This document shows positions 10,051-43,754 of a DNA stretch of 64,000 bases, piece by piece. The notes below the pieces were generated by a model. The model saw only the letters and a program-made list of their open reading frames with translations, was not told the origin of the DNA and ran no database searches. The translations under genes and the position numbers were made by a program. The stretch lies in assembly GCA_934155265.1 (NCBI GenBank), contig CAKPGU010000007.1, forward strand, positions 6,580 through 70,579, read 5' to 3'. The DNA is from an uncultured Clostridia bacterium (lineage in GTDB: Bacteria > Bacillota > Clostridia > TANB77 > CAG-508). Every line of letters starts with the position of its first letter. Positions within the stretch are counted from its first letter, which is position 1.

Positions 10051-11166
10051 CTATTCTTTTAATCTAATAGGTAAAATCATGTAAACATATTCATTGTTTT
10101 CCACAGATTTTACTAAACATGGGGATATACTTGTTCCAAATTCAACAAAAACCTCTTCATCATCTATTGCTTTTAAGCTGTCTAGGAAATATTTTGGATT
10201 AAATCCAGCTTCAATATTCTTTCCTTCAGTAGAAACAAATAATTCCTCTTTAGCTTCTCCTGTTTGATTTGTGCAAGATATTGTCATTTTTCCAATATCT
10301 ATAGAAACTTTAACAGGATATTTTTTCTCTTTTTCAATTGAAGATGCTGAAATTAAACTAATTCTCTCAAAACTATTTTGTAAACTACTTTTATTAACTC
10401 TAATTCTAGTCTCCCAATTGCTTGGTATTACTGATTTATAGTTTAAAAATTCTCCATCTAATATTCTTGTAACAACTTTACAATTTTCCATTTCGAATAA
10501 TGCTTGATTTCTTGCAATTCCTATTCTAACATGATCAAAAGAATCTAATAATATTTTATTTATTTCATTCAATGTTCTTCCTGGTATTACTGCCTTAAAA
10601 TCATTTACTTTTGTTTGTAAATAAATACTTCTTAGTGCTAATCTAAAACCGTCAACTGCAACAACATTTAACTTATTGTTTTCCACTTCGAATAAACAAC
10701 CTGTGAATATTGGTCTGTTTTCTTCGTTACTAACTGCAAATATTGTTCTTCTTATCATATTTTTTAACATATTCTGTTCTAAATCAATTGAATTTTCTAC
10801 CTCTATTTTAGGTAATTCTGGGAATTCAGAAGGATTCATTGTTGTTAGTTTATATAAAGCTCCTTCACATTCTATCTCCAATAAATTATTTTCATTTAAA
10901 GTTATATAAATCTCTGTATCTGGTAATTTTCTGATTATTTCGCTAAACATTATAGCATTTACAACTGTACTTCCTTGTTCTTTTACTTCACATTCCATTA
11001 CATATTCTATACCGATTTCTAAGTCATAAGTAGTTAATTTAATTTCTTTATCATTAGTTTGTATAAGTATTCCTTCTAGTATAGGCATTGTTGTTTTAGA
11101 TGCTACACCTTTTACTACGGAATTTAATGCTTTAAGGATATTTTCCTTATAACAAACGATTTTCAT
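10051..11166 (-). CDS. dnaN: DNA polymerase III beta sliding clamp
   Basis: MKIVCYKENILKALNSVVKGVASKTTMPILEGILI and onward, 371 aa. AAAGGAGAG RBS before ATG 11166. The track N-terminal extension to 11235 overlaps the origin AT-rich/trio DNA and is rejected. Confidence 0.97.
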   Translation of the reverse strand: MKIVCYKENILKALNSVVKGVASKTTMPILEGILIQTNDKEIKLTTYDLEIGIEYVMECEVKEQGSTVVNAIMFSEIIRKLPDTEIYITLNENNLLEIECEGALYKLTTMNPSEFPELPKIEVENSIDLEQNMLKNMIRRTIFAVSNEENRPIFTGCLFEVENNKLNVVAVDGFRLALRSIYLQTKVNDFKAVIPGRTLNEINKILLDSFDHVRIGIARNQALFEMENCKVVTRILDGEFLNYKSVIPSNWETRIRVNKSSLQNSFERISLISASSIEKEKKYPVKVSIDIGKMTISCTNQTGEAKEELFVSTEGKNIEAGFNPKYFLDSLKAIDDEEVFVEFGTSISPCLVKSVENNEYVYMILPIRLKE

Positions 11167-11169
11167 TTC

Positions 11170-11402
11170 GATCTCTCCTTTATATATTTTATTAATATTA
11201 ATATAAATATTATTAGTAGTAATAGTATTAGGCACTGTGGATAATGTGGAAAACTGTGTGGAAACTATAATTCCCTAAGGAAAAATTGTGTGTATAACTT
11301 AGTGGATAACTATTTAAATTTTCCACATTGTTTTTTTTCAAATGTGGATATATGAGTTGTTAACAGTTTATCAACACACTTTCAACATTTGGATGTGGAT
11401 AT
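11170..11402. promoter_or_regulatory. oriC, dnaA-dnaN part: DnaA-box cluster, GC cluster, TA-N trinucleotide run and AT-rich unwinding region
   Basis: Boxes TGTGGATAA 11236, TGTGGAAAA 11245, TGTGGAAAC 11257, AGTGGATAA 11301, TTTTCCACA 11319, TGTGGATAT 11343, TTATCAACA 11368, TGTGGATAT 11394. GGCAC at 11231-11235. Minus-strand TAA TAC TAT TAC TAC TAA TAA TAT at 11230-11207, then pure A/T to the dnaN RBS. Confidence 0.75.
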
Positions 11403-11501
11403 CTAATCTAGCTATTCCGTAAGTAAAGATAACTAATTTGTAACCAAACAATTGTCCATGTGAACAAATTTTCAAAAACAGTAACTAAACTATTTATTTT
11501 T

Positions 11502-12851
11502 CTATTGTTCACCATTTATAATTATGTTTTTCACACTTTCCACAATTAATCTTGTGTTATTTTTGTCTTTTACTTCTTTTTCAATTTTCTTACAAGCATG
11601 CATTACAGTTGAATGATCTCTATTGCCGAAATCCTCTCCTATCTTAGGATAAGACATATTTGCGACTTCTCTACAAAGGTACATAGCAATTTGTCTTGGG
11701 AAAGCAATTTCATTTGAACGTTTATTGCTTGCTAAATCATCTTTATTTATATTGAAATACTTTGCAACAGTTTCTTTTACGAAATCTGATGAAAGAACTT
11801 TTTCACTTGCTGCTTTAAATTCATTAATGGTATTTTCTGCTAATTCTATTGTGATTGGAGTATGTGTAAGTGATGCTGTGGCAATGATTTTGTTAAATAC
11901 TCCTTCTAATTCTCTAATGTTTGAATCAATTTTATTAGCAATATTTGCTAATATACTATCATCAACTACAATTTTTTCTTCTTGAGCTTTTTTTCTTAAA
12001 ATAGCTAAACGCGTTTCATAATCTGGGCAGGAAATATCTGCCAATAGTCCCCATTCAAATCTAGATTTTAGTCTATCTTCAAGAAACTGTATTTCTCTTG
12101 GAGGCTTATCACTAGAAATGATTATTTGCTTTTTATCTTCATATAAAGCGTTAAATGTGTGGAAAAATTCTTCTTGAACTCTTTCTTTTCCGGCAATAAA
12201 TTGAATATCGTCTATTAATAGAACATCAATTGTTCTATATTTATTCCTAAATACTTCGTTCTTATTGTCTTTGATGGCATTTATTAATTGATTTGTGAAC
12301 TTTTCAGATGTTACATATAGAATTTTTGCAGATCTGTTATTTTGCAAAATTCTATTTCCTATAGCTTGCATTAAGTGAGTTTTTCCTAATCCTACTCCAC
12401 CATATAAAAACAATGGATTGTAAGATTCACCAGGTTTATCACCTACTGCAATTGCTGCTGCATGGGCAAAACGGTTGTTATTACCAACAACAAAGGTTTC
12501 AAATGTATATTTTGGATTTAAAGTTTTGTTTGAAATTTCAATATCTCCATCTTGTACATTATTAGAAGAACTTACTTCTCCTCCTTCTACCTTTTTGCCA
12601 TTTTCGTCACAAATTACAGAAAATGTCCAATCTTTATTTGTAATGAATTTGAAAGTATTAAGAACTAGATCAGCATAACGAGTTTCTAGCATTTCTTTGC
12701 AGTAAGGTGAACTAGCTTTTAAGACGATGTTATTGTCAGTCATTTCAGTGATTTCCATAGAACTAAACCAAGTTTGAAATGCAATTTGAGTTACTTCATC
12801 TTTTAGTAAATCTTTTGCTTGATTCAATAGTTCGTCTTTGTCAATTTGCAT
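11502..12851 (-). CDS. dnaA: chromosomal replication initiator DnaA
   Basis: 449 aa from ATG 12851 (MQIDKDELLNQAKD). GGVGLGKTHLMQAIG, LLIDDIQFIAGKE, FGNRDHSTVMHACKKI. The track GTG start at 12905 overlaps DnaA boxes. Confidence 0.97.
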   Translation of the reverse strand: MQIDKDELLNQAKDLLKDEVTQIAFQTWFSSMEITEMTDNNIVLKASSPYCKEMLETRYADLVLNTFKFITNKDWTFSVICDENGKKVEGGEVSSSNNVQDGDIEISNKTLNPKYTFETFVVGNNNRFAHAAAIAVGDKPGESYNPLFLYGGVGLGKTHLMQAIGNRILQNNRSAKILYVTSEKFTNQLINAIKDNKNEVFRNKYRTIDVLLIDDIQFIAGKERVQEEFFHTFNALYEDKKQIIISSDKPPREIQFLEDRLKSRFEWGLLADISCPDYETRLAILRKKAQEEKIVVDDSILANIANKIDSNIRELEGVFNKIIATASLTHTPITIELAENTINEFKAASEKVLSSDFVKETVAKYFNINKDDLASNKRSNEIAFPRQIAMYLCREVANMSYPKIGEDFGNRDHSTVMHACKKIEKEVKDKNNTRLIVESVKNIIINGEQ

Positions 12852-12885
12852 ATTAAAACATCCTTTCAAATAAAAAATCATAAAG

Positions 12886-13096
12886 TTATCCACAAAGTTT
12901 TCCACAAGTGTGGATAACTTTGTAATATTTATGTAATAAATAGTGAATTTTCTACGAACAAATTTTTAATAGTTTTTGATTAAAAAATCCCCTACTTTTC
13001 TTTTTCTGTATAATATCAAAATTTTATACAATAAGTCAAGATAGTTGTGGATAATTTTCAAAAAAATGTGGAAAAGCACAAAAAAATTGTGGAAAA
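12886..13096. promoter_or_regulatory. oriC, upstream-of-dnaA DnaA-box cluster (also the dnaA promoter region)
   Basis: TTATCCACA 12886, TTTTCCACA 12898, TGTGGATAA 12909, TGTGGATAA 13046, TGTGGAAAA 13067, TGTGGAAAA 13088. Confidence 0.75.
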
Positions 13097-22413: not shown

Positions 22414-22463
22414 TAAATAGAAGTAGTTTGTAAAGTCTAATGATAAGAAAGTTAGGTGATGGT

Positions 22464-22919
22464 ATGAAAAATAGCCATAAAATAAAAATGTTCATAATTT
22501 TAATGATGATTTTTACAATTATATTTAATTTTGATTATATAGTAGAAGCTAGATATGATGATGATTTAACAGAAAGAGATGAAAGATTGAAAAATGAGGC
22601 ACAAGAAAGAACAAAAAATAATTCAGATCCTTCTGAAAACCCAAACTATTATCATCCAAAGACGTTGAGTCCAGAAGAACCAGAAGTACAAGAAAAAGCT
22701 GGAAAAATTTTAGGATATATTAATACTATAGGAATAGTAGTTTCAATAATAACATTAGTTATAATAGGTATAAAATATATGTTAGGAAGTATAGAAGAAA
22801 AAGCAGAATATAAGAAAACTATGATATATTACATGTTAGGAGCATTATTACTTTTTTCAGCAACAACAATACCAAACATATTATATAGATTAACAACAGG
22901 TCTATCTACATCAATATAG
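22464..22919 (+). CDS. VirB2/TrbC-like pilin-type membrane protein, paralogue 1
   Basis: ATG 22464 with an AGGTGA RBS. Signal/TM helix, acidic linker, two C-terminal TM helices. Motif GIKYMLGSIEEKAEYKKTMIYY shared with 23402-23752. Confidence 0.7.
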   Translation: MKNSHKIKMFIILMMIFTIIFNFDYIVEARYDDDLTERDERLKNEAQERTKNNSDPSENPNYYHPKTLSPEEPEVQEKAGKILGYINTIGIVVSIITLVIIGIKYMLGSIEEKAEYKKTMIYYMLGALLLFSATTIPNILYRLTTGLSTSI

Positions 22920-22934
22920 AGAGGAAGTGATAGG

Positions 22935-23330
22935 ATGAATCACAAAACAATTAGTATAGTATTAAAAATAATAATAATTATAATTTTATTAGGAGTAGTG
23001 ATTAAACCAAATATTTCGTATGCACTTCCGTTAACAGACATATTACATGCAGGTCAAAATTTTATAGATGAAGGAAAATCACAAGATAGTGTAATAAATC
23101 CAGGACAATTAAGAGATTCATCTAATTTAATATATAATATTTTATTAGGGATAGGAGTAATATTATCTGTATTAGTAGGGGCAATGCTTGGAATAAAAAT
23201 TATGTGGGGAAGTATAGAACAACAAACAAAAGCAAAAGAAGCACTAATGCCTTATGGAATAGGATGTGTAGTAATATTTGGAGCATTTGCAATATGGAAA
23301 CTTGCAGTGACAGTATTCTCACAAATATAA
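22935..23330 (+). CDS. VirB2/TrbC-like pilin-type membrane protein, paralogue 2 (more diverged)
   Basis: 131 aa with the same topology. GIKIMWGSIEQQTKAKEALMPYGIG occupies the motif position. Confidence 0.65.
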   Translation: MNHKTISIVLKIIIIIILLGVVIKPNISYALPLTDILHAGQNFIDEGKSQDSVINPGQLRDSSNLIYNILLGIGVILSVLVGAMLGIKIMWGSIEQQTKAKEALMPYGIGCVVIFGAFAIWKLAVTVFSQI

Positions 23331-23401
23331 AATAATTAAGTTATTTACATTCTGGAAAACCAGAGTTTATAAATAAAATAAATATAAAAGGAGGAAAAAA
23401 C

Positions 23402-23752
23402 ATGAGTACAAAAACTATGAAAATATTAACATTTGTAGCAACATTATTGTTAGTAGTATCATTAGGAACATCTGCAATATTTGCTCTTACACCAAATGGA
23501 GTTGTAGCTAAAGAACCAACTTCAACAGATATACAAGATTTGGGTGGAAGAATATTAGGGATTTTACAAACAGTAGGTGTTGTATTATCAGTAATAATAT
23601 TAGTAGTACTTGGTATTAAATATATGATGGGTAGTGCTGAAGAAAAAGCTGAATACAAGAAAACAATGATTCCTTACTTAGTTGGTGCTGTATTAATTTT
23701 CTTAGCTCCAACAATAGCAAACACAGTATATAGCTTAGTAAAACCAAACTAA
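23402..23752 (+). CDS. VirB2/TrbC-like pilin-type membrane protein, paralogue 3
   Basis: 116 aa. Signal peptide ...SAIFA/LTP, then ILGILQTVGVVLSVIILVVLGIKYMMGSAEEKAEYKKTMIPYLVGAVLIFLAP. AAGGAGGA RBS. Confidence 0.7.
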   Translation: MSTKTMKILTFVATLLLVVSLGTSAIFALTPNGVVAKEPTSTDIQDLGGRILGILQTVGVVLSVIILVVLGIKYMMGSAEEKAEYKKTMIPYLVGAVLIFLAPTIANTVYSLVKPN

Positions 23753-23783
23753 AAAGAAAAGTTAAAAAAAAAATCAAAAAAAG

Positions 23784-23815
23784 TCGATAAATGCTTCCAT
23801 TTATCGATTTTTTTT
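23784..23815 (+). terminator. intra-operon rho-independent terminator after the pilin genes
   Basis: TCGATAAATG cttc CATTTATCGA followed by TTTTTTTT. Confidence 0.7.
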
Positions 23816-23861
23816 GATATAATATAATAGAATGATTATATACAAACTAAGGAGGAAAGTT

Positions 23862-24209
23862 ATGGGAACATATAATGTACCAAGAAATGTAAAAGGAGAA
23901 GGAAGAATACTATTTATATTTTCTACCAAATCTATTATTTATACTGCTGTTGCAGGAGCAATTGGACTAATATTTTATTTGATTTTTAGTGCAATTGGTT
24001 TGACTATGGTTGGGATTGTTATTACAATAATATTTGCAGTAATTGGTTATGCAATTGGAATGTTTAAAGTTCCAGAAACAAATGGATTAGAAATAACAAG
24101 AAAAACTGGAGGAGAAGACATAGACGATGTTATAAAAAGGTATATTATGTTTAAAAAGAAAACAAAGAAACTTTATGTTTATACAAAGGAGGAAAATGAA
24201 AATGAATAG
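23862..24209 (+). CDS. PrgI-family / VirB3-like small membrane protein
   Basis: ATG 23862 after an AAGGAGG RBS. MGTYNVPRNVKGEGRILFIFSTKSIIYTAV followed by two TM helices, the typical PrgI layout. Located directly upstream of VirB4. Confidence 0.65.
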   Translation: MGTYNVPRNVKGEGRILFIFSTKSIIYTAVAGAIGLIFYLIFSAIGLTMVGIVITIIFAVIGYAIGMFKVPETNGLEITRKTGGEDIDDVIKRYIMFKKKTKKLYVYTKEENENE

Positions 24210-25422
24210 TGAAGCAACAACACAATTAATACAAACACTTACATATATATTGATTCCTATAATAATAGCTATATTTGCCTTGATAGGATTTTTAGTATAT
24301 TTACATTTTAAAGAAAACAATGCCAAAAGAGAAAAAGAAAATGCTGGAAGGCAAAGCAAAAGTGTTCCTCAACAAGACAAGCAATCTATATTTAATTTTA
24401 TGGAATTTGATACTGTTAAAGATAATATGATAATTCAAAGAAAAGGCAAAAGATATTTAATGGTAATAGAATGTCAAGGAATTAACTATGATTTAATGTC
24501 AAATGTAGAAAAAACAGGTGTTGAAGAAGGATTCGTACAATTTTTAAATACATTAAGATATCAAATTCAAATTTATGTACAAACAAGATCTGTTAATCTA
24601 GAAAACAGTTTACAAGTATACAGACAAAGAGTAAAAGATGTAGAAAATAAACTTAGAAAAATGCAAATGCAATATGATGACATGAAAGAATCGGGTGAAT
24701 ACACAGATGAACAATTGCAGAAAGCATATTATGAACTTACAAAACAGTCTAATTTATATGAATATGGAAAATCAGTTTTACAAGATACAGAGAGAATGAG
24801 CTTAAATAAAAATATTTTGAATAAAAGGTATTATATTATAGTTCCATATTACTCTGCAGAAGCTGGAAATGAAAATTTAGATGCAATAGAAGTAGAAGGA
24901 ATTGCTTTTTCAGAATTATATACTAGATCACAATCATTAATAAGATCAATATCAACCTGTGGGGTTAGAGGAAAAATATTAAGATCAAATGAATTAATTG
25001 AATTATTGTATATGGCATATAACAGAGAAGATGCAGAAACATTTGGATTAGACAAGGCTATACAGGCAGGATTTAATGAAATGTATTCAACAGCACCAGA
25101 TGTGTTGAAAAAGAAAATGAAAGAGATTGATAATGAGATAGAAGAAAAAGCAATACAAAAAGCAAAAGAAAAAGTTAATGAAGCTAAGTCTGAAATAGAA
25201 CAAGAAATTGAAGATAAAGAAAATCATATAGATGAGTTAATTGGGCAGATGGCCAAAATGATAATAGCAGAAAATGAAGAATATATAGGAAATGATGTTG
25301 TTAATAGAGCAATAGAAAAAGTAACAGAAGAATTAACTCAAAAATCAAATACAAAAGAAGGAGGTAATGAAAATGGCCAAAAAAAGACAACAAGAGGAAG
25401 AAAGAGAAATGCAACCAATTAA
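24202..25422 (+). CDS. TM-anchored VirB4 N-terminal-domain protein with a C-terminal coiled coil
   Basis: Start 24202 (GGAGG 9 nt upstream). TM LTYILIPIIIAIFALIGFLVYLHF. FMEFDTVKDNMIIQRKGKRYLMVIECQGINYDLMSNVEKTGVEEGF parallels ORF 5884-5330. Last ~110 aa are E/K-rich. Confidence 0.65.
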   Translation: MNSEATTQLIQTLTYILIPIIIAIFALIGFLVYLHFKENNAKREKENAGRQSKSVPQQDKQSIFNFMEFDTVKDNMIIQRKGKRYLMVIECQGINYDLMSNVEKTGVEEGFVQFLNTLRYQIQIYVQTRSVNLENSLQVYRQRVKDVENKLRKMQMQYDDMKESGEYTDEQLQKAYYELTKQSNLYEYGKSVLQDTERMSLNKNILNKRYYIIVPYYSAEAGNENLDAIEVEGIAFSELYTRSQSLIRSISTCGVRGKILRSNELIELLYMAYNREDAETFGLDKAIQAGFNEMYSTAPDVLKKKMKEIDNEIEEKAIQKAKEKVNEAKSEIEQEIEDKENHIDELIGQMAKMIIAENEEYIGNDVVNRAIEKVTEELTQKSNTKEGGNENGQKKTTRGRKRNATN

Positions 25423-27337
25423 TGAAGATTCACAATTATTAAGAAAACAAACTATAAAAGAATTAATAGCTCCTTCTGGAATAGATGCATCAGATATTGA
25501 TCACTTAGAAATAATTTCTAGTGTAAAGAAATATGCAAGAAGCTTCTTTGTTTCAACATTACCAAGAATGTGTACATTCCCAGAATTATTTAGGGATATG
25601 TATTTCTTCGGAGATATAAATACATCAATATATATAAATCCAGTTCAAGAAGCTAAGTCACAAAACGAATTAAACAGAATAATTAATGAACTTGAAACAG
25701 AAAGAATTGTTGCAGCTGATAGAGGAAATATAAACAGAGAAAGTAATTTAACACAAAAAAGATTTGAAGCAGAACAATTAAGAGATGAAATTGCAGCAGG
25801 ATTTAATAAATTATATGAAGCATCTGTTATTTCAACAATCTTTACATATAATTTAGATGATTTAGATAGATTAACAAAATTGTTATCAACAGAAATGTCA
25901 AAATCATTGGTTGGAGTAAAAACAGCATGGGCAATGCAAGAAGAGGCTTTTAAATCTAATTTACCATTAATGGAAAATAAGATTAATAAAACTCATACTT
26001 TTGATAGACGTTCAATGTCAACAATATTTCCATTTGTTACATCAGAGGTAGGACATTCAACAGGAATTCCTTTAGGATTTAATAAACAAACAGGAACACC
26101 AATATTATTTGATAATTTTCATAATTCACTTACAAATTATAATATGGTTATATTTGCAAAATCTGGTGCTGGTAAATCTGTAACGATGAAAACATTGATA
26201 AGTAGATCTTCATTACTAATGGGAATTGAAAGTTTAGCACTTGATGCTGAGGGTGAATATCAAATAGTTGCTGAATCATTAGGTGGAATAAATGTTGTTT
26301 TAAGTCCAACATCCAAAACAGTTATTAACTTATTTGATGTTGAAACAGAAACAGCTAAAGATGAAATAACAGGAAGAGAAAGATTAGTTCTAAATATTGA
26401 AAATAAAGTAGAAGATGTAACACAAGCTTTATTAACAATGGCTAGAGGTAGTACAAGAAGTACAGAAGTAAATGAGTTAACAAAACAAATTATAGCAGAA
26501 TCTGTAGCAGAAGAATATGCTGCAAGAGGAATAACAAGTGACCCTAATAGTTTATATGAAGCTACAACTAATTTTAACAGAGGGGACAAATTATATAGGG
26601 ATAAAAAGAAAATGCCGACAATAGGTTCTTGGTATAGAAGGATTCAAGCAAAAGCACAAGAGAATATGAATGATGACTATAGATTCCATTATAGTTATTT
26701 ATTAAAAGTAATGAAACAATACATAAGAGAATATAATGGTCAAATGGCTTATTTTGATGGACAATCTACATTTGAATTATTAGAAGGAGCACCATTTATA
26801 AATTTGGACATATCTCAATTGGAAGAAAAATTTGCAAGACCACTTGCACAACAGATTCTTTTAACTTGGATATGGGAAAAATTTGTTAAGAAAAATAGTG
26901 AAGATAGAAGTAAAGCTACAAAGAAAAGGGTAATTGTCGATGAGGCATGGATGTTACTACCATACCCAGAAGCTGTAGATTTCTTAAATACAATGGCTAG
27001 ACGTGCTAGAAAAAGAAATGTTTCTTTAGCAGTAGTTTCTCAAAGATTCCAAGATTTCTATGAAAAACCTGAAGCTCAAGCTGTTCTTACATCTTCTGAT
27101 ACAAAATTATTTTTAGCACAAGATAAATCTGAAATACAATATTTAAAAGAAGTATTTAAGTTAAGTGAAGGAGAAGCTGGATTTTTGGTTACTTGTGGTA
27201 AGGGTGAAGGGTTGTTAAAGGTTGGACCTGAATCTGCTATTATACAAATAACACCTACACAAAAAGAGTTTGAGTTTGTGGAGACAAACTTGAATAAGTT
27301 AATTAAAAATAGAACAGCAAGAATAAATGAAGAGTAA
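25373..27337 (+). CDS. VirB4/TrsE-like conjugative ATPase (ATPase portion)
   Basis: Own GGAGG RBS 8 nt before ATG 25373. IAPSGIDASDIDHLEI, Walker A IFAKSGAGKSVTMK, Walker B RVIVDEAWMLL, NVSLAVVSQRFQDF. Overlaps the upstream ORF by 50 nt. Confidence 0.9.
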   Translation: MAKKRQQEEEREMQPINEDSQLLRKQTIKELIAPSGIDASDIDHLEIISSVKKYARSFFVSTLPRMCTFPELFRDMYFFGDINTSIYINPVQEAKSQNELNRIINELETERIVAADRGNINRESNLTQKRFEAEQLRDEIAAGFNKLYEASVISTIFTYNLDDLDRLTKLLSTEMSKSLVGVKTAWAMQEEAFKSNLPLMENKINKTHTFDRRSMSTIFPFVTSEVGHSTGIPLGFNKQTGTPILFDNFHNSLTNYNMVIFAKSGAGKSVTMKTLISRSSLLMGIESLALDAEGEYQIVAESLGGINVVLSPTSKTVINLFDVETETAKDEITGRERLVLNIENKVEDVTQALLTMARGSTRSTEVNELTKQIIAESVAEEYAARGITSDPNSLYEATTNFNRGDKLYRDKKKMPTIGSWYRRIQAKAQENMNDDYRFHYSYLLKVMKQYIREYNGQMAYFDGQSTFELLEGAPFINLDISQLEEKFARPLAQQILLTWIWEKFVKKNSEDRSKATKKRVIVDEAWMLLPYPEAVDFLNTMARRARKRNVSLAVVSQRFQDFYEKPEAQAVLTSSDTKLFLAQDKSEIQYLKEVFKLSEGEAGFLVTCGKGEGLLKVGPESAIIQITPTQKEFEFVETNLNKLIKNRTARINEE

Positions 27338-27347
27338 GGAGAAAAAA

Positions 27348-30300
27348 ATGAAAATTTTTACCAATAAAGGTATAATTGGAAAGTTAGTTATAGTAATAAG
27401 TATATTAATAATATTTTCTTGTTTAATTCCTAGTAATAAGGTTTATGCAGCCGATTTAGGTGGAACTTTGTTAAGACCAGTAATGGACTTGATATTAACT
27501 ATTGCTGATGGAATATTTGATGTAGTGCAAAAAGCATTATTTGATTCACCTTCATTAATAGTACTGGATTTAAGTAAAGGCATTTTGTCTACAATTTTTA
27601 CAGTAGTAGCAGGAGTAATTATAGCTGTTGTTGTGGCTGCTGTTGCTATTGCTTTAGGTGTTGCTCTTCCAACTATTGTTTCTGCGCTTGTAGCAAAAGT
27701 AGGAGTAGATCTTTCTGTTGGTTTATCAGCAGCAGCAATAGGAACTATTGTTGTAACTGCTGTTGGAGAGGGAGCCATTGCAGGTTTAGCTGGTGGTGCA
27801 TTTTTTAATAGGACATTTTTTGGAGACCAAGCGGTTTTGCCTTTATATAGGATAAGCCCAGAAGAAATTTTTGCAGGGGATATTCCTATGTTGGATGTAA
27901 ACTTTTTTGACTCTGGAACAGCTGAAAGTTCTAATATTAGCGATGCAGATGTATCAGAAATGACAAAAATGGTAGATTCAAAGTCAGGAATTATTGGACC
28001 TAGAAGTACTGATGAAACATTAAATTCGGAAATAAATGATTTCTTAAGTAAATATGGATTTGATGGATCATTTGATGTAGGAGTATATACAGGTGGACAT
28101 TATAATCAAGATAAAAATATAAGTGCAGAAGAGATAGGAACAGCGGTGGATGAAGGGGGAGTACCATATATAGCAAAATTTAGTTTAGTAATTTCAACTA
28201 ATACTTATAATGGTATTGGTCACGGAACATATGAAGTTGCTGTTTACTCAAAAGCACTAGGACTTATTGATATTGGAAATACTCTAAAACCAACAATATC
28301 TAAATGGTATTATGCGCTAAGAACTATTGCAATTGTAGTGATGTTAATAATTCTTGTATATATAGGAATTAGAATAATGACTTCAAGTATAGCAAGTGAA
28401 AAATCTAAATATAAGAATATGCTAACAGACTGGGTCGTTGCAATGACTTTAATATTTGTTATGCATTATATAATGGTTTTTGCTAATAATATTAATGAAT
28501 CGATTATTGAAGTTTTTAAATCAGCTAATAAAGTTGGAGCTCAAATTGGGGTAATACTTGATAAAGACGGAGATATAAAAAGAGCATTAGAAGAAGATGA
28601 TGTTGGAAAGACTATGATATCGGAACATCCAGATATTTTTGCTGGATATGAAAATGGAGAAGGTCATATTAATTGGCCAACTAATTATATGGGATTAATC
28701 AGATTAGAGGCGGCTCAACATAGTGATGCGGGTATGCTATTTATAGGATATGGAATGGCATTTTTAGTATTATGGTTTTATACAATATTTTTCTTATTTA
28801 CATATCTTAGAAGGTTAGTATATATTGCATTTTTAACAATTATTGCTCCAATGGTAGCAATGACATATCCAATAGATAAAATAAATGATGGAAAAGCTCA
28901 AGCTTTTGATATGTGGTTTAAAGAATATATATTTAATTTATTGTTACAGCCGGTACATCTATTGTTATATACAATTTTAATATCTAGTGCTTGCGAATTG
29001 GCAGAAACAAATATAATTTATACACTAGTAGCATTAGGCTTTATGATGCCAGCAGAAAAATTATTACGTAGATTCTTTGGATTTGAGAAAGCACAAACTC
29101 CAGGAGCTCTTGGAGGAGCAGCAGGAGCTGCTCTAATGATGTCTGGATTAAATAGATTATTAAGACCTCGTCCACCAAGACATGATCATAATTTAGGTGG
29201 TGAAAAAAATTCAGAAGATGAAAATAAAGATTACAGCTTAAATTCAACAGGAGATTTAATGGATGGAGTAGAATTAGGTGCAGGGGCTGGAAAAACAGAT
29301 GATAAAGATCCTACTAAAAAACCAGTTTTACCACCTGATGATTCATTTGATAAGAAAGAGGATGCAAAGGAAAATAAGAGAAGATTAATTTTTTCAGGAG
29401 AGAATCCTGAGGACAAACCAAATGGAAAATTAATATATACTCCTGAGACAGAGAGAAAAATGGAGGAAGAAAGACAAAGAAAAGCAGCTGAAGCTGCTGA
29501 AGAAGCAAGAAAAAAGGCTATGGCAGAACAGATAAAGAAATCAATAGAGAAAAAGAATGAAAAAGAAGCTATTGCAAAAGCAGAGAAATTAAAAGCGGAT
29601 AAGCTAAAGAAGTTGAAAGAAGAGCGAGCTAAACATCCTATAAAGACTAAAATTAAAGGTGTTGCTAAAGGATTAGGAAAATCATCTAAATATTATCTTG
29701 AAGCAAGCATGAATAGAGCTATTAGAAATTATAGAGGAAGAGGAATTTCAACAATAGGAAGAACGTTAAGAGGTGGATTTGTAGGAGCAGGTGCTGCAAT
29801 TGTCGGAGCATCTATAGGAATTGCATCTGGTGATATTGGAAAAGTTGGTCAGAATGCATCAACAGCAGCTGTAGCTGGATATGCAGTAGGTGCAAGAAAA
29901 GGTGATCCTGTGTCAGAGAAGGATGCTAAAAAAATAGGTGAGGAAATTGAAAAAAATCAATATGATACACCAGAAGAATATAAAGCAGCAAAATTGAAGA
30001 AAAATGTAGATAAAATTGTTAAAAATTCAGATAATGTAAAAACTATACAGGAAAATTTAAACTTAAAAAATTATGATGAAGCAGAGAAAAAACTTGAAAG
30101 CTATAGAGATTGTATGGAAGAGGGCATTACTGATATGGACGATGTAAGTACAATAATCAAAATGGTTGAAGAGAAAAATTGGGATAAAGAATTTGCAAAA
30201 AATATAGCAAGAGCATCTAAAAGTTTATCAAAGAGACCAGATAAAATAGAGGGAACTCGTGAAGGAGATGACTTAAAGAAAAAATATATAAAATATGCTC

Positions 30301-37511: not shown

Positions 37512-39222
37512 AAAAATAAAAAAATTATCAAAAATATTTATTGAAGATTATTTTCAAAAATTAAATATTTATAATAAAGATACCAAAAAAATAAATAAAA
37601 AATCAATATTATTATGGTTAATGATAATTTGTGCATTTATAATTAGTTATTTTAGTTTTAAAGTAATAAATTGGCTTGATACTAGAGGATTAGGTGATAT
37701 ATTTTTAAAAGTGTATTTACCTATAATGGGAGTTATATTTACTTATCAAACTATTTTAATATGTACTAATGTATTTTATTATTCGAAAGATTTAGAATAT
37801 ATTTTACCATTACCAATAAAACCCATTGAATTATTAATTTCAAAATTTATTAATTTAATTACTATAATATATTTTTCTGAATTATTATTTTTAGCAATTC
37901 CATTATTATTTTATGGACTTGTTGTACAACAAACATTATTATATTTTATTAGTATGATATTAGTATTAATATTATTTCCGATTGTTCCAGCAATATTTAT
38001 TAGTATAATAATGTTATTTGTAATGCAATTATCAAAATTAATAAAAAATAAAGATATATTTCAAATAATAATTGTGACAATTTTAACAATGGTGATGACA
38101 ATTGGAATTAATTATATATTAGTATCAACTTTTAATGATGGAATTATTGAAATTAATTCGGAAGAAATTACAGAGGATAATATTCAGGATTTAGCAAAAA
38201 TAAATACAGAAAAAATAAATACAAAATTAGAAAAAATAAATAATGATTTAATATTTATAAATCCATGTATAAATATGTTAAATAATATAAATATATTTAA
38301 TATTATTTTTCAATTGTTTAAATTATTAATATTGGAAATTATATTATTTATTATATTTATTTTCTTTGGAAAAAAATTATATTTAAATAATTTATTAAAA
38401 AATATAGTTTTAGCAAATAGTAAAAAAAATAAAATGAAAAATAAATATAAAAAAAATAAATATAAAAAAAATAAAATAAAAAATTCATATATAAAAAATG
38501 AATTTAGAAAAATAATAAAAAATCCAACATTTTTTATTCAATGTATTTTTCAAAATTTATTTATAATATTTATTTTTTCAATGTTATTAAAATTATTTAT
38601 TCCGATGATTATTGAGGGATTTAAAGATGAAGATGCAATAAGTAAAATTGGAATAGAAAATTTTAAATTACAAATACTTTGCATAGTGATAGGGATTATA
38701 CAAATATTATATACATTTGGAAATTTGGCAATATCAGCAATATCAAGAGAAGGAAAAAATGCTGTTGTTATGAAATATTTACCAGTGGATTTATATAAAC
38801 AATTTATTTATAAAGGCATTCCTTCAATAATAATGAATATTATTGGAAGTATAGCTATAATAGTAACTATATATTTACAATTAGATAATATTCCAATTTA
38901 TTATGGAATAATAGTTTTTATAATTAGTTTGATAATAAATATAATTAATACATATTTTATGATTATTGTTGATTTAAAAAAGCCTAATTTGGATTGGAAT
39001 TCAGAAGCATCAGCTTTAAAAAATAATGGAAATAAATTATATCAATATGTTGTAACAATTTTAATTATTTTATTATTAACTTATTTTACAAAAATATTTA
39101 ATAATGTAAAAATAATAATTTCAATACCAAGTATAATAATTGTATTATTTATGATTTTATTTTTTGAAAAAATATATGTAAAAAGAAATATAAATAAATT
39201 ATTTAAAAATATAATAATTTAG
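37504..39222 (+). CDS. polytopic membrane protein, putative ABC exporter permease partner
   Basis: 572 aa with at least 10 hydrophobic helices and an 8-nt overlap with the ATPase gene. Contains a K/N-rich loop KNKMKNKYKKNKYKKNKIKN. Confidence 0.7.
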   Translation: MIKKIKKLSKIFIEDYFQKLNIYNKDTKKINKKSILLWLMIICAFIISYFSFKVINWLDTRGLGDIFLKVYLPIMGVIFTYQTILICTNVFYYSKDLEYILPLPIKPIELLISKFINLITIIYFSELLFLAIPLLFYGLVVQQTLLYFISMILVLILFPIVPAIFISIIMLFVMQLSKLIKNKDIFQIIIVTILTMVMTIGINYILVSTFNDGIIEINSEEITEDNIQDLAKINTEKINTKLEKINNDLIFINPCINMLNNINIFNIIFQLFKLLILEIILFIIFIFFGKKLYLNNLLKNIVLANSKKNKMKNKYKKNKYKKNKIKNSYIKNEFRKIIKNPTFFIQCIFQNLFIIFIFSMLLKLFIPMIIEGFKDEDAISKIGIENFKLQILCIVIGIIQILYTFGNLAISAISREGKNAVVMKYLPVDLYKQFIYKGIPSIIMNIIGSIAIIVTIYLQLDNIPIYYGIIVFIISLIINIINTYFMIIVDLKKPNLDWNSEASALKNNGNKLYQYVVTILIILLLTYFTKIFNNVKIIISIPSIIIVLFMILFFEKIYVKRNINKLFKNIII

Positions 39223-39288: not shown

Positions 39289-39373
39289 GTTCTAAAAATT
39301 ATTTAATAATAATATTATTTGATTAGACAAGAAATAGTATATTAAAAATATTTATAAGGGGGAGTTTTATTAT

Positions 39374-39913
39374 ATGAAAAAAAATAAAAAAATATATATT
39401 GCTGTTATTAGCTTTATATTAATAATTTTGCTTGTTATATATACCTATAAAAATATAAGTATACAGAAAAATACTGAGGACGAATATCAAGATTATACAC
39501 CACAAGAAGAAATATCAGATGAACAAATGCGTCAAACAAAAGTTATATTATATTTTGAAAATATTAATAGTGGTGAGTTAGAAGCAGAAACTAAGCTTGT
39601 AGATGCCAATACTTTGATCAAGGAGCCAGAAAAAGAATTAATGAATTTATTAATAAAAGGACCTCAAAGTAGTAATTTAAAAAAATTAATTCCAGAAGGA
39701 ACAGTGGTTCATAATATTACTATAAATAATTCTTGTGCAGAAATAAATGTTTCAAATGAATTTTTAAATTATGGAGATGAAAAAAATAAATTAAAAATAA
39801 TAAATAGTATTGTAAATACATTAACAAATTTAAAAGAAATTAATTCAATTAAATTTTTGATTAATGGAGAGGTTAATAATAACTTGTCTGAAGTTTATTT
39901 AAAAAATAAATAA
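39374..39913 (+). CDS. GerMN-domain (sporulation/germination GerM-like) protein, N-terminally anchored
   Basis: 179 aa. TM, then VILYFENINSGELEAETKLVD...LMNLLIKGPQSSNLKKLIPEGTVVHNITINNSCAEINVSNEF, typical of GerMN domains. Confidence 0.75.
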   Translation: MKKNKKIYIAVISFILIILLVIYTYKNISIQKNTEDEYQDYTPQEEISDEQMRQTKVILYFENINSGELEAETKLVDANTLIKEPEKELMNLLIKGPQSSNLKKLIPEGTVVHNITINNSCAEINVSNEFLNYGDEKNKLKIINSIVNTLTNLKEINSIKFLINGEVNNNLSEVYLKNK

Positions 39914-42297
39914 AATTTAATAATATAGAATTTTATATTATAGACACAATTTCTCATAAAACAAGGTAATATATTTTATAAGATTTATATGAATTAAACA
40001 AAATTAACAGGAAAAAACTTACAGCTCAAAATAAAAAAAGTGAAAAAAATTTAATTAAATATAAATTAATAAGAATATTGTATATTCACGTGTAAATGCT
40101 GATAAATAGAGCACTTTAAGATACACTTATAAATTAAAAATAATTGTAAATGAATATAAAATTTGACTTGCTAATTTGAAGTATAAAAATTATTTATAAA
40201 AATTTTGAACAGTAAAATAAAAAATTTTATTGCAATATTTAAAGAAAATATAAGTATACAAAATAAGGTTGAAAATTAAAATTGATATAATTTTTTGTAA
40301 TCATTTAAAAGCTATTATAAAAAAATAAAAAATTTTACCTTATTAAATTCTAAATAATAAAAATAAATTTAATTAAATCATTATTTAAAATTTAACTAAA
40401 TAATAAAATTTTTTTATTTTATAAATAATTAATTAAATAAAAATAAAAAAATTTCAGATATTATTTTTTATAAATAATATTAAAATATAATTAAAAATAA
40501 AATATATAAAAATAAAATTTTAATATAAAAAATAACAATAAAATTATTTAAAAAATTTATGAAAATAAAAAAATATATTTAATAAAAAATAATTATTAAT
40601 ATAAAATAAAAAAATATTTAAATGATTAATAAAAAACAATTTATTTATTTTATAAAAAAATAAAAATTTAAATATTAAAAATTAATTTTATTAAATTTTA
40701 ATAGAGCAAAAAATTCATAAAAATTTTAATAATGTTTTTTAGAAAATAATAAAATTTAATAATATAGAATTTTATATTGTGGATATAATTTCGTATAAAG
40801 CAGGGTAACGTATTTTATAAGATTAATTGAATTAAATAAAATCAGCAGGAAAAAACTTACAGTTAAAGATAAAAAAGTGAAAAAAATTTAATTAAATATA
40901 AATTAACAAAAATATTATATATCCACTTGTAAATGCTGATAAATACAGCAATTTAAGATATACTTATAAATTTAAAATGATTGTAAATTAATATAAAATC
41001 GGACTTGTAAATTTGAAGTATAAAAAATTATTTATAAAAATTTTGAACAGTAAAATAAAAAATTTTATTGTAATATTTAAAGAAAATATAAGTATGCAAA
41101 ATAAGGTTGAAAATTAAAATTGATATAATTTTTTTGTGATGATTTAAATGTTGCTATAAAAATATAGTAAAAATTGAACTATTAAAATTTAATTAATAAT
41201 GATAAATTTTTTCTATTTAATTAAAATATTATTTGAAATTTAATTAATAATAATTTGAATTTTTTTATTTTATAAATAATTAATTAAATAAAAAAATTTC
41301 AGATATTATTTTTTATAAATAATATTAAAATATAATTAAAAATAAAATATATAAAAATAAAATTTTAATATAAAAAATAACAATAAAATTATTTAAAAAA
41401 TTTATGAAAATAAAAAAATATATTTAATAAAAAATAATTATTAATATAAAATAAAAAAATATTTAAATGATTAATAAAAAACAATTTATTTATTTTATAA
41501 AAAAATAAAAATTTAAATATTAAAAATTAATTTTATTAAATTTTAATAGAGCAAAAAAATTTTAATAATGTTTTTTAGAAAATAATAAAATTTAATAATA
41601 TAGAATTTTATATTGTGGATATAATTTTGTATAAAGTAGGGTAACATATTTTATAAAATTAATATGAATTAAATAAAATGAGCAGGAAAAAAATTACAGT
41701 TCAAAATAAAAAAAGTGAAAAAATTTTAATTAAATATAAATTAACAAGAATATTATATATCCACGTGTAAATGCTGATAAATACAGCACTTTAGGATATA
41801 TTTATAAATTTAAAATGATTGTAAATTAATATAAAATTTGACTTGCAAATTTGAAACATAAAAAATTATTTATAAAGATTTTGAACAGTAAAATAAAAAA
41901 TTTCATTGTAATATTTAAAGAAAATATAAGTATGCAAAATAAGGTTGAAATTTAAAGCTGGTATAATTTTTGGTAATCATTTAAAGGTTGTTATAAAAAT
42001 ATAATAAAAAATTTACCCTTATTAAATTCTAAATAATAAAAATAAATTTAATTAAATCATTATTTAAAATTTAATTAGATAATAAAATTTTTTTATTTTA
42101 TAAATAATTAATTAAATAAAAATAAAAGTAATTTAAATATAATAATAAATAAAATATATAAAAATATATTTAATAAAAATTAAATATTAATATAAAATAA
42201 AAAACGGTTTATTTAGTTTATTAAAAAATAATAATTTAAATATATTAATAAAAAATACTATGTTATTAAAATTAATAGCATAGCATTAAAATTAAAT
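39912..42297. repeat. three head-to-tail ~836-839-bp tandem repeats, ORF-free and extremely AT-rich
   Basis: Unit starts AAAATTTAATAATATAGAATTTTATATT at 39912, 40751 and 41587. 40438-40715 and 41275-41555 look almost identical by eye (two short indels). Unit 3 diverges after ~42120. The track has no ORF of 60 codons or more in any frame across this block. Confidence 0.9.
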
Positions 42298-42540
42298 TTA
42301 TTTAAATAAGTAATATATTTTAATATATTTAATAAAATTACTAAAATTATTTAAAAAATATTCAACATCATTTAGTGAATTACAAGTATTTTTTTTTATT
42401 GCAATAAAATCAAATTTTTTATGAGGATTTTTTTTCTTTTTTGGATTAGGCGGCTTTGGAGGAGGTGGTGCAGGAGGAGGCGGAGGATTAGATCTAGAAT
42501 AATTATAAGAAAAAGGTAAATATTTATTAAATTGATTCAT
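42298..42540 (-). CDS. hypothetical proline-rich small protein (80 aa)
   Basis: ORF track. SNPPPPPAPPPPKPPNPKKKKNP core. Weak RBS, and it abuts the repeat block. Could be spurious. Confidence 0.3.
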   Translation of the reverse strand: MNQFNKYLPFSYNYSRSNPPPPPAPPPPKPPNPKKKKNPHKKFDFIAIKKNTCNSLNDVEYFLNNFSNFIKYIKIYYLFK

Positions 42541-42601
42541 AAAATCACACTCGCTTTTGTTTTTTTATATATTATATGCAAATAATAATGAAATTGTAAA
42601 A

Positions 42602-42630
42602 CCTCATCCTAATATAAAATTAGGATGAGG
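42602..42630. terminator. 12-bp perfect hairpin, bidirectional terminator-like
   Basis: CCTCATCCTAAT ataaa ATTAGGATGAGG. TTGTTTT on the plus side, TTTT on the minus side. Confidence 0.55.
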
Positions 42631-42638
42631 TTGTTTTC

Positions 42639-42806
42639 TCAATCTTTTCCCAAGAAAATTATTACTAGGAAAAAAATAATGAGTATAATCATTAAAACGT
42701 ACCAATACTTTACCAGAAGGTAAAGTACAACGAAAAAACATACAAGGCCTGCTATAACTGGAACTATCTCAGGAAGTAATAATAACATCAAAAGCAGGAA
42801 TGCCAT
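42639..42806 (-). CDS. small hydrophobic membrane protein (55 aa, below the track cut-off)
   Basis: Hand translation: MAFLLLMLLLLPEIVPVIAGLVCFFVVLYLLVKYWYVLMIILIIFFLVIIFLGKD. GAAAGGAG RBS 8 nt before ATG 42806. Followed by the 42602-42630 hairpin. Confidence 0.45.
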   Translation of the reverse strand: MAFLLLMLLLLPEIVPVIAGLVCFFVVLYLLVKYWYVLMIILIIFFLVIIFLGKD

Positions 42807-42926
42807 TGTAAATGCTCCTTTCTGATATATTTTTTTGATTTAATACGATTTACAGCATTATTATACCACAAAATTTGCAAAAATGATAGTATTATGTTAA
42901 AATATTATTGCATAAAAAGGAGAGGA

Positions 42927-43754
42927 ATGAAAATGAGTGGAAAATTATATATAGTAGCGACTCCGATAGGAAATTTAGAAGATATAACTTTAAGAGCTTT
43001 AAATGTTTTAAGAGAAGTTGATGTTATTGCTGCAGAAGATACAAGACAAACTTTAAAACTATTGAATCATTTTGAAATTTCAAAGCCTTTAATTAGTTAT
43101 CATAGGCATAATGAGGATATAAAAAGTAATTTATTAATTGAAAAATTAAATAATGGTGAAAATATAGCATTAGTTTCAGATGCAGGAACACCTGGAATTT
43201 GTGATCCTGGCGAAGAAGTAATAAAAAAATCAATAGAAGAAGGTATTGCAGTAATACCAATTCCTGGAGCTTGCGCAATGATAAATGCATTAATTGCTTC
43301 TGGATTACCTACAAAAGAATTTAATTTTTTAGGTTTTTTACCTTTAAATAAAAAATTAAGAAAAGAAAAATTAAATGAAATAGAAAATTCTGAAAAAACA
43401 ATTATAATTTATGAAGCACCACACAAAATGAAAACTACTTTATTGGATTTAAAAAATATATTAAAAAATAGAAAAATTGTTTTAGCAAGAGAATTAACTA
43501 AAATTCATGAGGAATTTATTAGAAAAGATATTGAGGAATTATTACAAGAAATTGATGACTTAAAAGGGGAAATGATTTTAATTATAGAAGGAAATAAAGT
43601 AGAAGATAAAGAAGAAAATGGATTAAATAATTTATCTTTAGAAGAGCATTATAAATATTATGAAAAACAAGGATTAGATAAAAAAGAAATAATAAAAAAA
43701 ATAGCTAAAGATAGAAATGTAAGTAAAAACGAAATTTATATGAAATTTATTTAA
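42927..43754 (+). CDS. rsmI: 16S rRNA (cytidine1402-2'-O)-methyltransferase RsmI
   Basis: GKLYIVATPIGNLEDITLRAL, AEDTRQT, SDAGTPGICDPG. Start is 42927 or 42933 (AAGGAGAGG RBS). Confidence 0.93.
   Translation: MKMSGKLYIVATPIGNLEDITLRALNVLREVDVIAAEDTRQTLKLLNHFEISKPLISYHRHNEDIKSNLLIEKLNNGENIALVSDAGTPGICDPGEEVIKKSIEEGIAVIPIPGACAMINALIASGLPTKEFNFLGFLPLNKKLRKEKLNEIENSEKTIIIYEAPHKMKTTLLDLKNILKNRKIVLARELTKIHEEFIRKDIEELLQEIDDLKGEMILIIEGNKVEDKEENGLNNLSLEEHYKYYEKQGLDKKEIIKKIAKDRNVSKNEIYMKFI

Follow-up and report, generated by a model that had tools for sequence, protein, structure and literature searches.

An uncultured Clostridia bacterium (contig CAKPGU010000007.1; the 64,000-nucleotide stretch of it analyzed here is called the window) carries a 2.4-kb block of noncoding DNA at 39912-42297, directly downstream of a gene for a GerMN-domain protein and made of three head-to-tail repeat units of ~838 bp. 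We describe here that this array is probably a satellite-like tandem duplication at the 3' flank of the GerMN gene, whose units evolve in concert and which has no sequence-specific function. This reading is carried by the repeat structure, the polymorphism between strains, the restriction of the array to its lineage, the pattern of substitutions and the negative outcome of the tests for function, and from these we infer that recombination and slippage shaped the block. A sequence-only reading of this DNA had listed neutral duplication as one candidate next to small-RNA genes, a protein-binding array and a plasmid-derived origin. Neutral duplication is the best fit, as the array is polymorphic in copy number and in deletions, is absent from close relatives, is most variable at its G/C sites and has a GC content at equilibrium.

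Structure of the array

The block contains no open reading frame (ORF) of 40 amino acids or more (39913-42298), the earlier claim for the 2.4 kb having been that none of 60 codons or more is present, and only ORFs of 20 to 34 amino acids are found inside it. Its division into three tandem units is equally clear, with unit starts 837 to 839 nt apart and the identical 28-mer AAAATTTAATAATATAGAATTTTATATT at the start of each (39912, 40751 and 41587). Each unit combines a ~425-bp complex half (14.9-16.1% GC) with a ~410-bp half of nearly pure A/T (3.7-5.9% GC), and the GC content of the whole block is 10%. The units and the two genes between which they lie are as follows.

39374-39913, plus strand: GerMN-domain gene, 179 amino acids, left flank (Pfam Germane, E 2e-20); its stop codon abuts unit 1
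39912-40750: unit 1; complex half 39912-40340 (14.9% GC), A/T half 40341-40750 (3.7% GC)
40751-41586: unit 2; complex half 40751-41170 (16.0% GC), A/T half 41171-41586 (4.1% GC)
41587-42297: unit 3; complex half 41587-42009 (16.1% GC), truncated and diverged A/T tail 42010-42297 (5.9% GC)
42298-42540, minus strand: conserved proline-rich ORF of 80 amino acids, right flank, convergent with the GerMN gene

Pairwise identities of the complex halves are 89.2% for units 1 and 2 and 91.9% for units 2 and 3, in agreement with the earlier view that these halves have diverged and that units 2 and 3 are closest. Over 287 nt, units 1 and 2 share 98-100% identity in their A/T halves, and the corresponding part of unit 3 is truncated and diverged, also as first read; the A/T halves carry periodicities of 17 to 27 nt at low identity. 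Within the complex halves, every conserved island that had been listed was recovered, one of them a single base from its given position. These islands, together with three further features discussed below, are located as follows.

40283-40291, also 41121 and 41959, plus strand: extended -10-like TGnTATAAT, present in all three units
40778 and 41614: TGTGGATAT
40082 in unit 1 (given as 40083): start of ATAT(T/C)CAC(G/T)TGTAAATGCTGATAAATA, present in all three units
40009-40026, 40847-40864 and 41684-41701, plus strand: 18-nt island AGGAAAAAAYTTACAGYT, once per unit
40778-40786 and 41614-41622, minus strand: DnaA-box-like ATATCCACA (8 of 9 positions), missing from unit 1 and varying among strain copies
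40671-40750 (end of unit 1) and 41507-41586 (end of unit 2), plus strand: relic of the GerMN 3' end (~80 nt), found by end-anchored alignment

No further copy of the unit was detected by nhmmer elsewhere in the window or at related loci, and the sole match to the unit in a scan of JGI metagenomes was the same locus.

Variation between strains

In what follows, L and P numbers label the related contigs, loci and lineages that were compared; all contigs come from short-read assembly. The exact GerMN protein is present in 192 blocks of the assembly collection, and the contigs that were read all come from human-gut metagenomes. The array was found in at least 12 independent metagenome contigs and hence is not an assembly artifact. 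In ten contigs with an identical GerMN protein, the gap between the GerMN gene and the small ORF, where both lie on the contig, measures 606, 909, 1537, 1738, 1987, 2186, 2245, 2290 or 2375 nt; by BLAST mapping, the contigs carry 1 (as in L004), about 1.5, 2 (as in L007) or 3 units, with internal deletions of parts of the array. One internal deletion is common to two independent samples (L003 and L010). Many contigs (L010, L019, L020, L022, L023 and L024) end inside the array, as expected of a true repeat. It is of note that contig L024 (positions 15-554) encodes a GerMN variant with another N terminus (MKKKRIISIISLLL..), the remainder being 93% identical and followed by the same repeat unit, which suggests recombination within the GerMN gene between lineages.

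Mode of sequence evolution

Substitutions were analyzed in 19 distinct copies of the complex half. Among the columns of this alignment, 59% of those with G/C are variable, compared with 19% of those with A/T. Minor alleles are balanced (43 changes from A/T to G/C and 43 in the opposite direction), and the per-site rates predict an equilibrium of 15.7% GC, the observed value for the complex half being 15-16%. Balanced alleles and a GC content at equilibrium are the pattern expected without selection. Copies at the same position of the array differ by 3-15% between strains, compared with 1-2% at third codon positions of the flanking genes and 0.1% in the upstream spacer; this rapid divergence points to gene conversion or unequal crossing-over that shuffles variants among the paralogous units, and chimeric assemblies may contribute to it. 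A recent conversion tract is visible in units 1 and 2, whose A/T halves show the near identity given above while their complex halves differ by 11%. The A/T halves lie far below the 15.7% equilibrium and also below the other intergenic regions (12-34% GC). Their very low GC content and short periodicities fit growth by slippage of A/T motifs, as in the simple repeats of sister lineages described next.

The same site in related lineages

A check of relatives for presence and copy number by BLAST, as had been proposed, showed that the array is polymorphic in strains and absent from close relatives. The site after the GerMN gene is highly plastic across the genus, as is evident from the following loci (identities are those of the GerMN protein to that of the window).

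L012 (69%): 20-bp gap with a shared hairpin
L011 (73%): a different ~800-bp tandem repeat beyond the small ORF, on its far side
L016 and L017 (79-80%): ~200 nt of A/T-only simple repeat, (AAATAATAAAAAAAT)n-like
P0007 lineage, L013-L015 (81%): ORF-free block of 1.6-2.3 kb with its own tandem units of 750-810 bp
L021, L025 and L026 (81-86%): gene for a repeat protein of 780 amino acids
L022 (95%): the region after the GerMN gene begins with the same kind of A/T simple repeat as in L016 and L017

The array of the P0007 lineage was not detected by blastn or nhmmer with the unit of the window. Array units are thus alike within a lineage (85-97% identity) and show no detectable similarity to the P0007-lineage array. 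Full-length homology of the window unit with the units of the P0007 and P0012 lineages was considered and rejected, as global alignment gave z values of ~0.7 and 2.8 and only the 18-nt island stood out. Two of these loci merit a brief description. The 780-amino-acid protein (L021, 1211-3553; also L025 and L026) has no Pfam domains, and its N-terminal half consists of repeats of ~35-40 amino acids (..KKIELLN..). In L011, the repeat units at 10790-12329 contain a relic of a ribosome-binding site plus ATG (GAGGTAAGGTATG), followed by early stops and A/T-only filler, and this contig ends inside its own ~800-bp repeat.

Origin from the GerMN gene

The sequence preceding units 2 and 3 had been likened to the 3' end of the GerMN gene over about 25 nt. 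This resemblance is real and extends to ~80 nt, with alignment scores of 22-25.5 compared with a null of 12 ± 3.4 (p ~0.002-0.014). The duplicated segment therefore included gene sequence. The relic has diverged by ~30% from the real end of the GerMN gene, whereas the units differ by ~10% from one another, which fits an old array whose units have been homogenized among themselves. No such 3' relic was found in the array of the P0007 lineage.

A second link is provided by the 18-nt island. Its sequence AGGAAAAAAYTWACARYT is present in single copy in every unit of three arrays, those of the window, P0007 and P0012 lineages, and is missing from all other sequences compared; it is the only segment recognizably common to the window array and the arrays of the two sister lineages. 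In the P0007 and P0012 lineages, GerMN codons 5-10 (RKKITA) are identical to the island 16-mer (AGGAAAAAAATTACAG); the GerMN gene of the window lineage itself has no sequence that matches the island. This raises the possibility, to which we give clearly less than an even chance, that each unit descends from a tandem copy of the entire GerMN gene with a short spacer and has since decayed, so that the locus would be a pseudogene array with a functional first copy. Such an account bears on how the array originated and does not conflict with a neutral, satellite-like behavior. It would explain an island that is identical to a stretch near the start of the gene and unit ends that resemble its 3' end, both lying on the plus strand and in gene order, and there is a weak third colinear match of gene nt 357-380 to unit offset 381-404. 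In composition-aware local alignments, the island match reached z values of 2.4-5.8, and 0-12 of 500 shuffles scored as well, these being restricted comparisons. However, when the whole gene was searched against the whole block, the island was borderline (23.0, with a null maximum of 22.8), several candidate source genes having been tried. Identity along the diagonal outside the island is at background (69 of 180 positions, compared with 65 ± 6), tblastn with composition correction did not place GerMN among the best of 200 window ORFs, and a profile of the GerMN gene gave only E values of 4-9 with nhmmer. Moreover, the two relics lie ~210 nt further apart in the unit than the corresponding sequences do in the gene, and the missing 3' relic in the P0007-lineage array also argues against this origin. 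In all, the 5' island and the 3' end match in order, and the middle is without signal.

Other sources were tried and discarded. When 200 window ORFs were compared with the block by tblastn, no match rose above noise that would make the unit a decayed copy of another gene of the window, and a match to the GerMN protein at an E value of 0.012 obtained without composition correction was lost after correction. The start of the unit had appeared similar to the promoter, ribosome-binding site and start of the 780-amino-acid gene of L021, L025 and L026, but composition-aware z values were at most 0.3 and tblastn found nothing; a resemblance so convincing by eye that nevertheless failed shows how easily AT-rich sequence yields false resemblances. 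The region upstream of the GerMN gene as the source of the unit start, also a promising resemblance by eye, was not significant by alignment statistics.

Tests for a function of the array

Functional proposals of several kinds were examined, and none fared well. For three tandem small-RNA genes, no Rfam match was obtained in the block at gathering thresholds or, over 39300-42900, even at E ≤ 1, a scan that the sequence-only reading had itself suggested. The folding energy is not below that of shuffles (z -0.53 on the plus strand and -0.72 on the minus strand), and the GC content is low, at 10% for the block compared with 32-34% for the intergenic regions of the window that carry tRNA and signal recognition particle RNA. 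In AT-rich genomes, structured RNAs lie in intergenic regions of raised GC (PMC8632094). A broader form of this idea would make the unit a small expression module, that is, an unstructured small RNA or a type-I-toxin-like peptide with its antisense RNA, with copy number tuning dosage. The TGnTATAAT motif is kept in all 19 distinct unit copies, a minus-strand ORF of 19-23 amino acids (MLYLSAFTRGYIIFLLIYI) is open in 18 of them and a plus-strand ORF of 24-34 amino acids in 15, the latter being frameshifted in unit 1; a minus-strand site TTATCA-17-TATAAT is present in units 2 and 3, and the conservation of the 18-nt island across lineages would also suit such a module. Set against this, TGnTATAAT sits within a generally well-conserved stretch and has no -35 element at 16-18 nt, and promoter-like sites in the region are not in excess (62, with 50 ± 7.4 expected). 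The minus-strand promoter-like site falls inside the minus-strand ORF. By reading of the sequence, neither small ORF is preceded by a Shine-Dalgarno motif, and L020 does not retain the minus-strand ORF, L013 showing only weak similarity to it; unit differences within the 19-amino-acid form of this ORF alter amino acids (R/S and E/G). A strand with 37% A and 53% T gives frames rich in F, I, L and Y by chance, and 19 open codons have a probability of ~0.16 as estimated from base composition. No small ORF is kept in all units and lineages, and partial deletions of units are tolerated. The tandem repeats LDR (ldr/rdl) and QUAD (ibs/sib) of Escherichia coli are type I toxin-antitoxin modules, and the array resembles them as a set of intergenic tandem repeats of several hundred base pairs that lack long ORFs and have promoter-like sites and tiny ORFs. 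In contrast to these modules, it lacks a small ORF that has a ribosome-binding site and is conserved in every unit and lineage, it forms no stable RNA structure, and half of each unit is pure A/T filler. Given these results, we consider an expression module unlikely.

A protein-binding or structural element near the origin of replication (DnaA titration, ParB or Spo0A binding, or a melting or curved nucleoid-organizing element), which had also been proposed, fits the position of the block ~27 kb from oriC and the occurrence in units 2 and 3 of ATATCCACA, a DnaA-box variant also used twice in oriC. It would fit the A/T halves as well, since DNA of 3.7-5.9% GC, compared with 12-34% in other intergenic regions, must melt very easily. 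datA and DnaA-box clusters titrate DnaA near oriC, and the array shares with them the nearness to the origin and DnaA-box-like 9-mers. Unlike datA, however, it has at most one 8/9 box per unit, with none in unit 1, where unit-1-type copies carry a degraded version, and the box is not conserved among strains; the two 8/9 boxes in 2.4 kb compare with 8-9 per oriC cluster of ~170-210 bp. The ATAT(T/C)CAC(G/T)TGTAAATGCTGATAAATA island had been described as combining a DnaA-box-like sequence with a parS-like CACGTG core. By direct reading, the core is intact only in units 1 and 3, and the likeness to parS does not go beyond 10 of 16 positions. The 16-bp parS palindrome TGTTNCACGTGAAACA has no match within 3 mismatches inside the block, Spo0A boxes (TTTGTCGAAA-like) are represented there by only three matches with 2 mismatches, with no window-wide excess, and A-tract phasing and periodicity, run as the suggested check of curvature, are not above shuffles in the block. 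As close relatives also lack the array, a role of this kind seems to us quite unlikely. The remaining proposal, a relic plasmid or integrative and conjugative element (ICE) origin of replication or transfer at the edge of a type IV secretion system (T4SS)-like island, draws on the AT-rich, repetitive nature of the block and on a T4SS-like cluster at 22440-35544 (three TrbC/VirB2 pilins, PrgI and a VirB4-like ATPase), downstream of two tRNA-Ser genes. We regard it as highly improbable, as blastn against 72,556 plasmids and 50,697 phages found nothing, the repeats in the block are short-period A/T repeats of 64-85% identity rather than iteron-sized (~17-22 bp) repeats of high identity, and the flanking ORFs scanned include no rep, relaxase or integrase gene. 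In addition, the genes for the ABC transporter and GerMN lie between the cluster and the block, and relatives without the array still have both the T4SS-like cluster and GerMN.

Genomic context

With the GerMN gene on the plus strand to its left and the 80-amino-acid ORF on the minus strand to its right, the block lies between two convergent 3' ends. At its right edge it carries the following feature.

42243-42287, minus strand: hairpin of -12 kcal/mol followed by UAUUUUUUAUU (z -2.3; 5 of 200 shuffles fold as well)

This hairpin and its U-run are probably the intrinsic terminator of the 80-amino-acid ORF; a check of the region for terminators revealed no convincing one belonging to GerMN. The small ORF has a PPPPPAPPPPKPP tract and a conserved C-terminal part (..C.SLNDVE.FL..) with no Pfam match. 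Homologues of 71-121 amino acids are present in every related locus and are always convergent with GerMN, and the ORF is probably a real, unannotated small protein of the genus. A perfect hairpin with a 14-bp stem (AACCTCATCCTAAT..ATTAGGATGAGGTT) followed by a T-rich tail is located at 42600-42632, between the start of the small ORF and the presumed rsmI and thus upstream of both divergent genes; in a search for terminator-like sites, it was the only one found in 39300-43000. To the right of the small ORF, a methyltransferase gene and an AbrB-family gene are followed by two more genes, and these are read as rsmI, abrB and spmAB on the basis of Pfam domains and gene order.

oriC was placed at about 11.2-13.1 kb of the window by the GC-skew switch and two DnaA-box clusters. 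These clusters (11236-11402 and 12886-13096) flank a minus-strand ORF at 11502-12905, which we take to be dnaA, so that oriC is bipartite; both GC skew and AT skew change sign at ~13 kb. The sizes of the neighboring ORFs suggest the gene order dnaA-dnaN-recF-gyrB near oriC. Downstream of oriC follow parA, the two tRNA-Ser genes, the T4SS-like cluster, the ABC transporter, the GerMN gene and the block, and a parB-sized ORF after parA is assigned as parB from gene order only. The T4SS-like cluster begins just after the two tRNA-Ser genes, its three TrbC/VirB2-type pilins are paralogues, its PrgI protein is a member of that family and its ATPase is VirB4/TraG-like. It also encodes a protein of 1026 amino acids, whose counterparts in related contigs match DUF8208, and a hydrolase of 1377 amino acids with a C39-like peptidase end; the scanned ORFs included neither a relaxase nor a coupling protein. 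Across the genus the cluster is conserved, with rearrangements, and in L016 and L021 the pilin genes are located directly upstream of GerMN. Within the ABC-permease-like ORF at 37504-39222, A-rich tandem repeats of 15, 27 and 42 nt at 38415-38520 encode a K/N-rich low-complexity insert (..KKNKMKNKYKKNKYKKNKIKN..), and A/T slippage therefore acts in coding DNA of this genome too.

Discussion

The data presented here are consistent with the following course of events. The array would have arisen by tandem duplication of the DNA immediately downstream of GerMN, together with ~80 nt or more of the 3' end of the gene; a complete GerMN copy, now decayed, may have been included. Unequal crossing-over and gene conversion between the direct repeats would keep the units alike within a lineage, and the same recombination would alter the number of units and produce partial deletions. 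Replication slippage may have built the near-pure A/T halves, and point substitutions would accumulate without selection under the strong AT-biased mutation of the genome. The promoter-like and box-like islands would then stem from the AT-richness of the sequence or be remnants of the duplicated DNA, and the array would serve at most as a spacer between convergent genes that carries the putative terminator of the right-hand gene at its edge.

Satellite and ribosomal DNA arrays, as well as bacterial tandem duplications, undergo unequal recombination and concerted evolution. Similar to satellite-type arrays, the units described here are arranged head to tail, vary in number and carry partial deletions between strains; they are alike within a lineage, cannot be aligned between two lineages and show a recent conversion tract. 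Bacterial tandem duplications, in contrast, usually bear genes and are quickly lost, whereas this array is gene free, its units are ~10% diverged, and an array is present at the site in at least two lineages with GerMN proteins that are 81% identical. The A/T tracts after GerMN in L016, L017 and L022 resemble it in position, in an extremely A-rich leading strand and in their short-period repeats, but they measure only 70 to ~200 nt and have neither a complex half nor a ~800-bp periodicity. In the literature on large intergenic tandem repeats, we found nothing specific to such arrays.

Several points weigh against a purely neutral array. The 18-nt island recurs in three lineages whose units otherwise cannot be aligned, which pure neutral decay does not predict. 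TGnTATAAT is retained in every distinct copy and the minus-strand ORF in nearly all, as described above. Arrays of similar period persist here in at least two lineages with GerMN proteins only 81% identical, and bacterial genomes usually delete 2 kb of useless DNA. Furthermore, some of the shorter alleles may be collapses of short-read assembly, and the absence of function is something that we infer. The island, the retained TGnTATAAT and the ~800-bp arrays persisting in two lineages leave a small probability of a regulatory role. One form that this might take, to which we assign only a slim chance, is a dosage-tunable locus in which the island AGGAAAAAAYTTACAG, corresponding to GerMN codons 5-10 in sister lineages, acts as a pseudogene-derived antisense seed or as a decoy for a factor that binds the 5' end of GerMN mRNA. 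If so, the number of units, changed by recombination, would determine how strongly a sporulation or germination gene is expressed; the GerMN gene of the window lineage, however, lacks the matching sequence.

In summary, we regard a satellite-like array without sequence-specific function as the probable nature of the block downstream of GerMN. If this is true, the array is ordinary in kind, an example of satellite-like bacterial junk DNA on which AT-biased mutation, slippage and unequal recombination have acted, and it would gain importance only through a function of the conserved island or of the promoter-like site that is retained. In practical terms, it breaks short-read assemblies of a widespread uncultured Clostridium of the human gut and could serve as a strain marker. 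Its A/T halves, at 4-6% GC, may also offer a view of how AT-rich unconstrained DNA can become in this genome.

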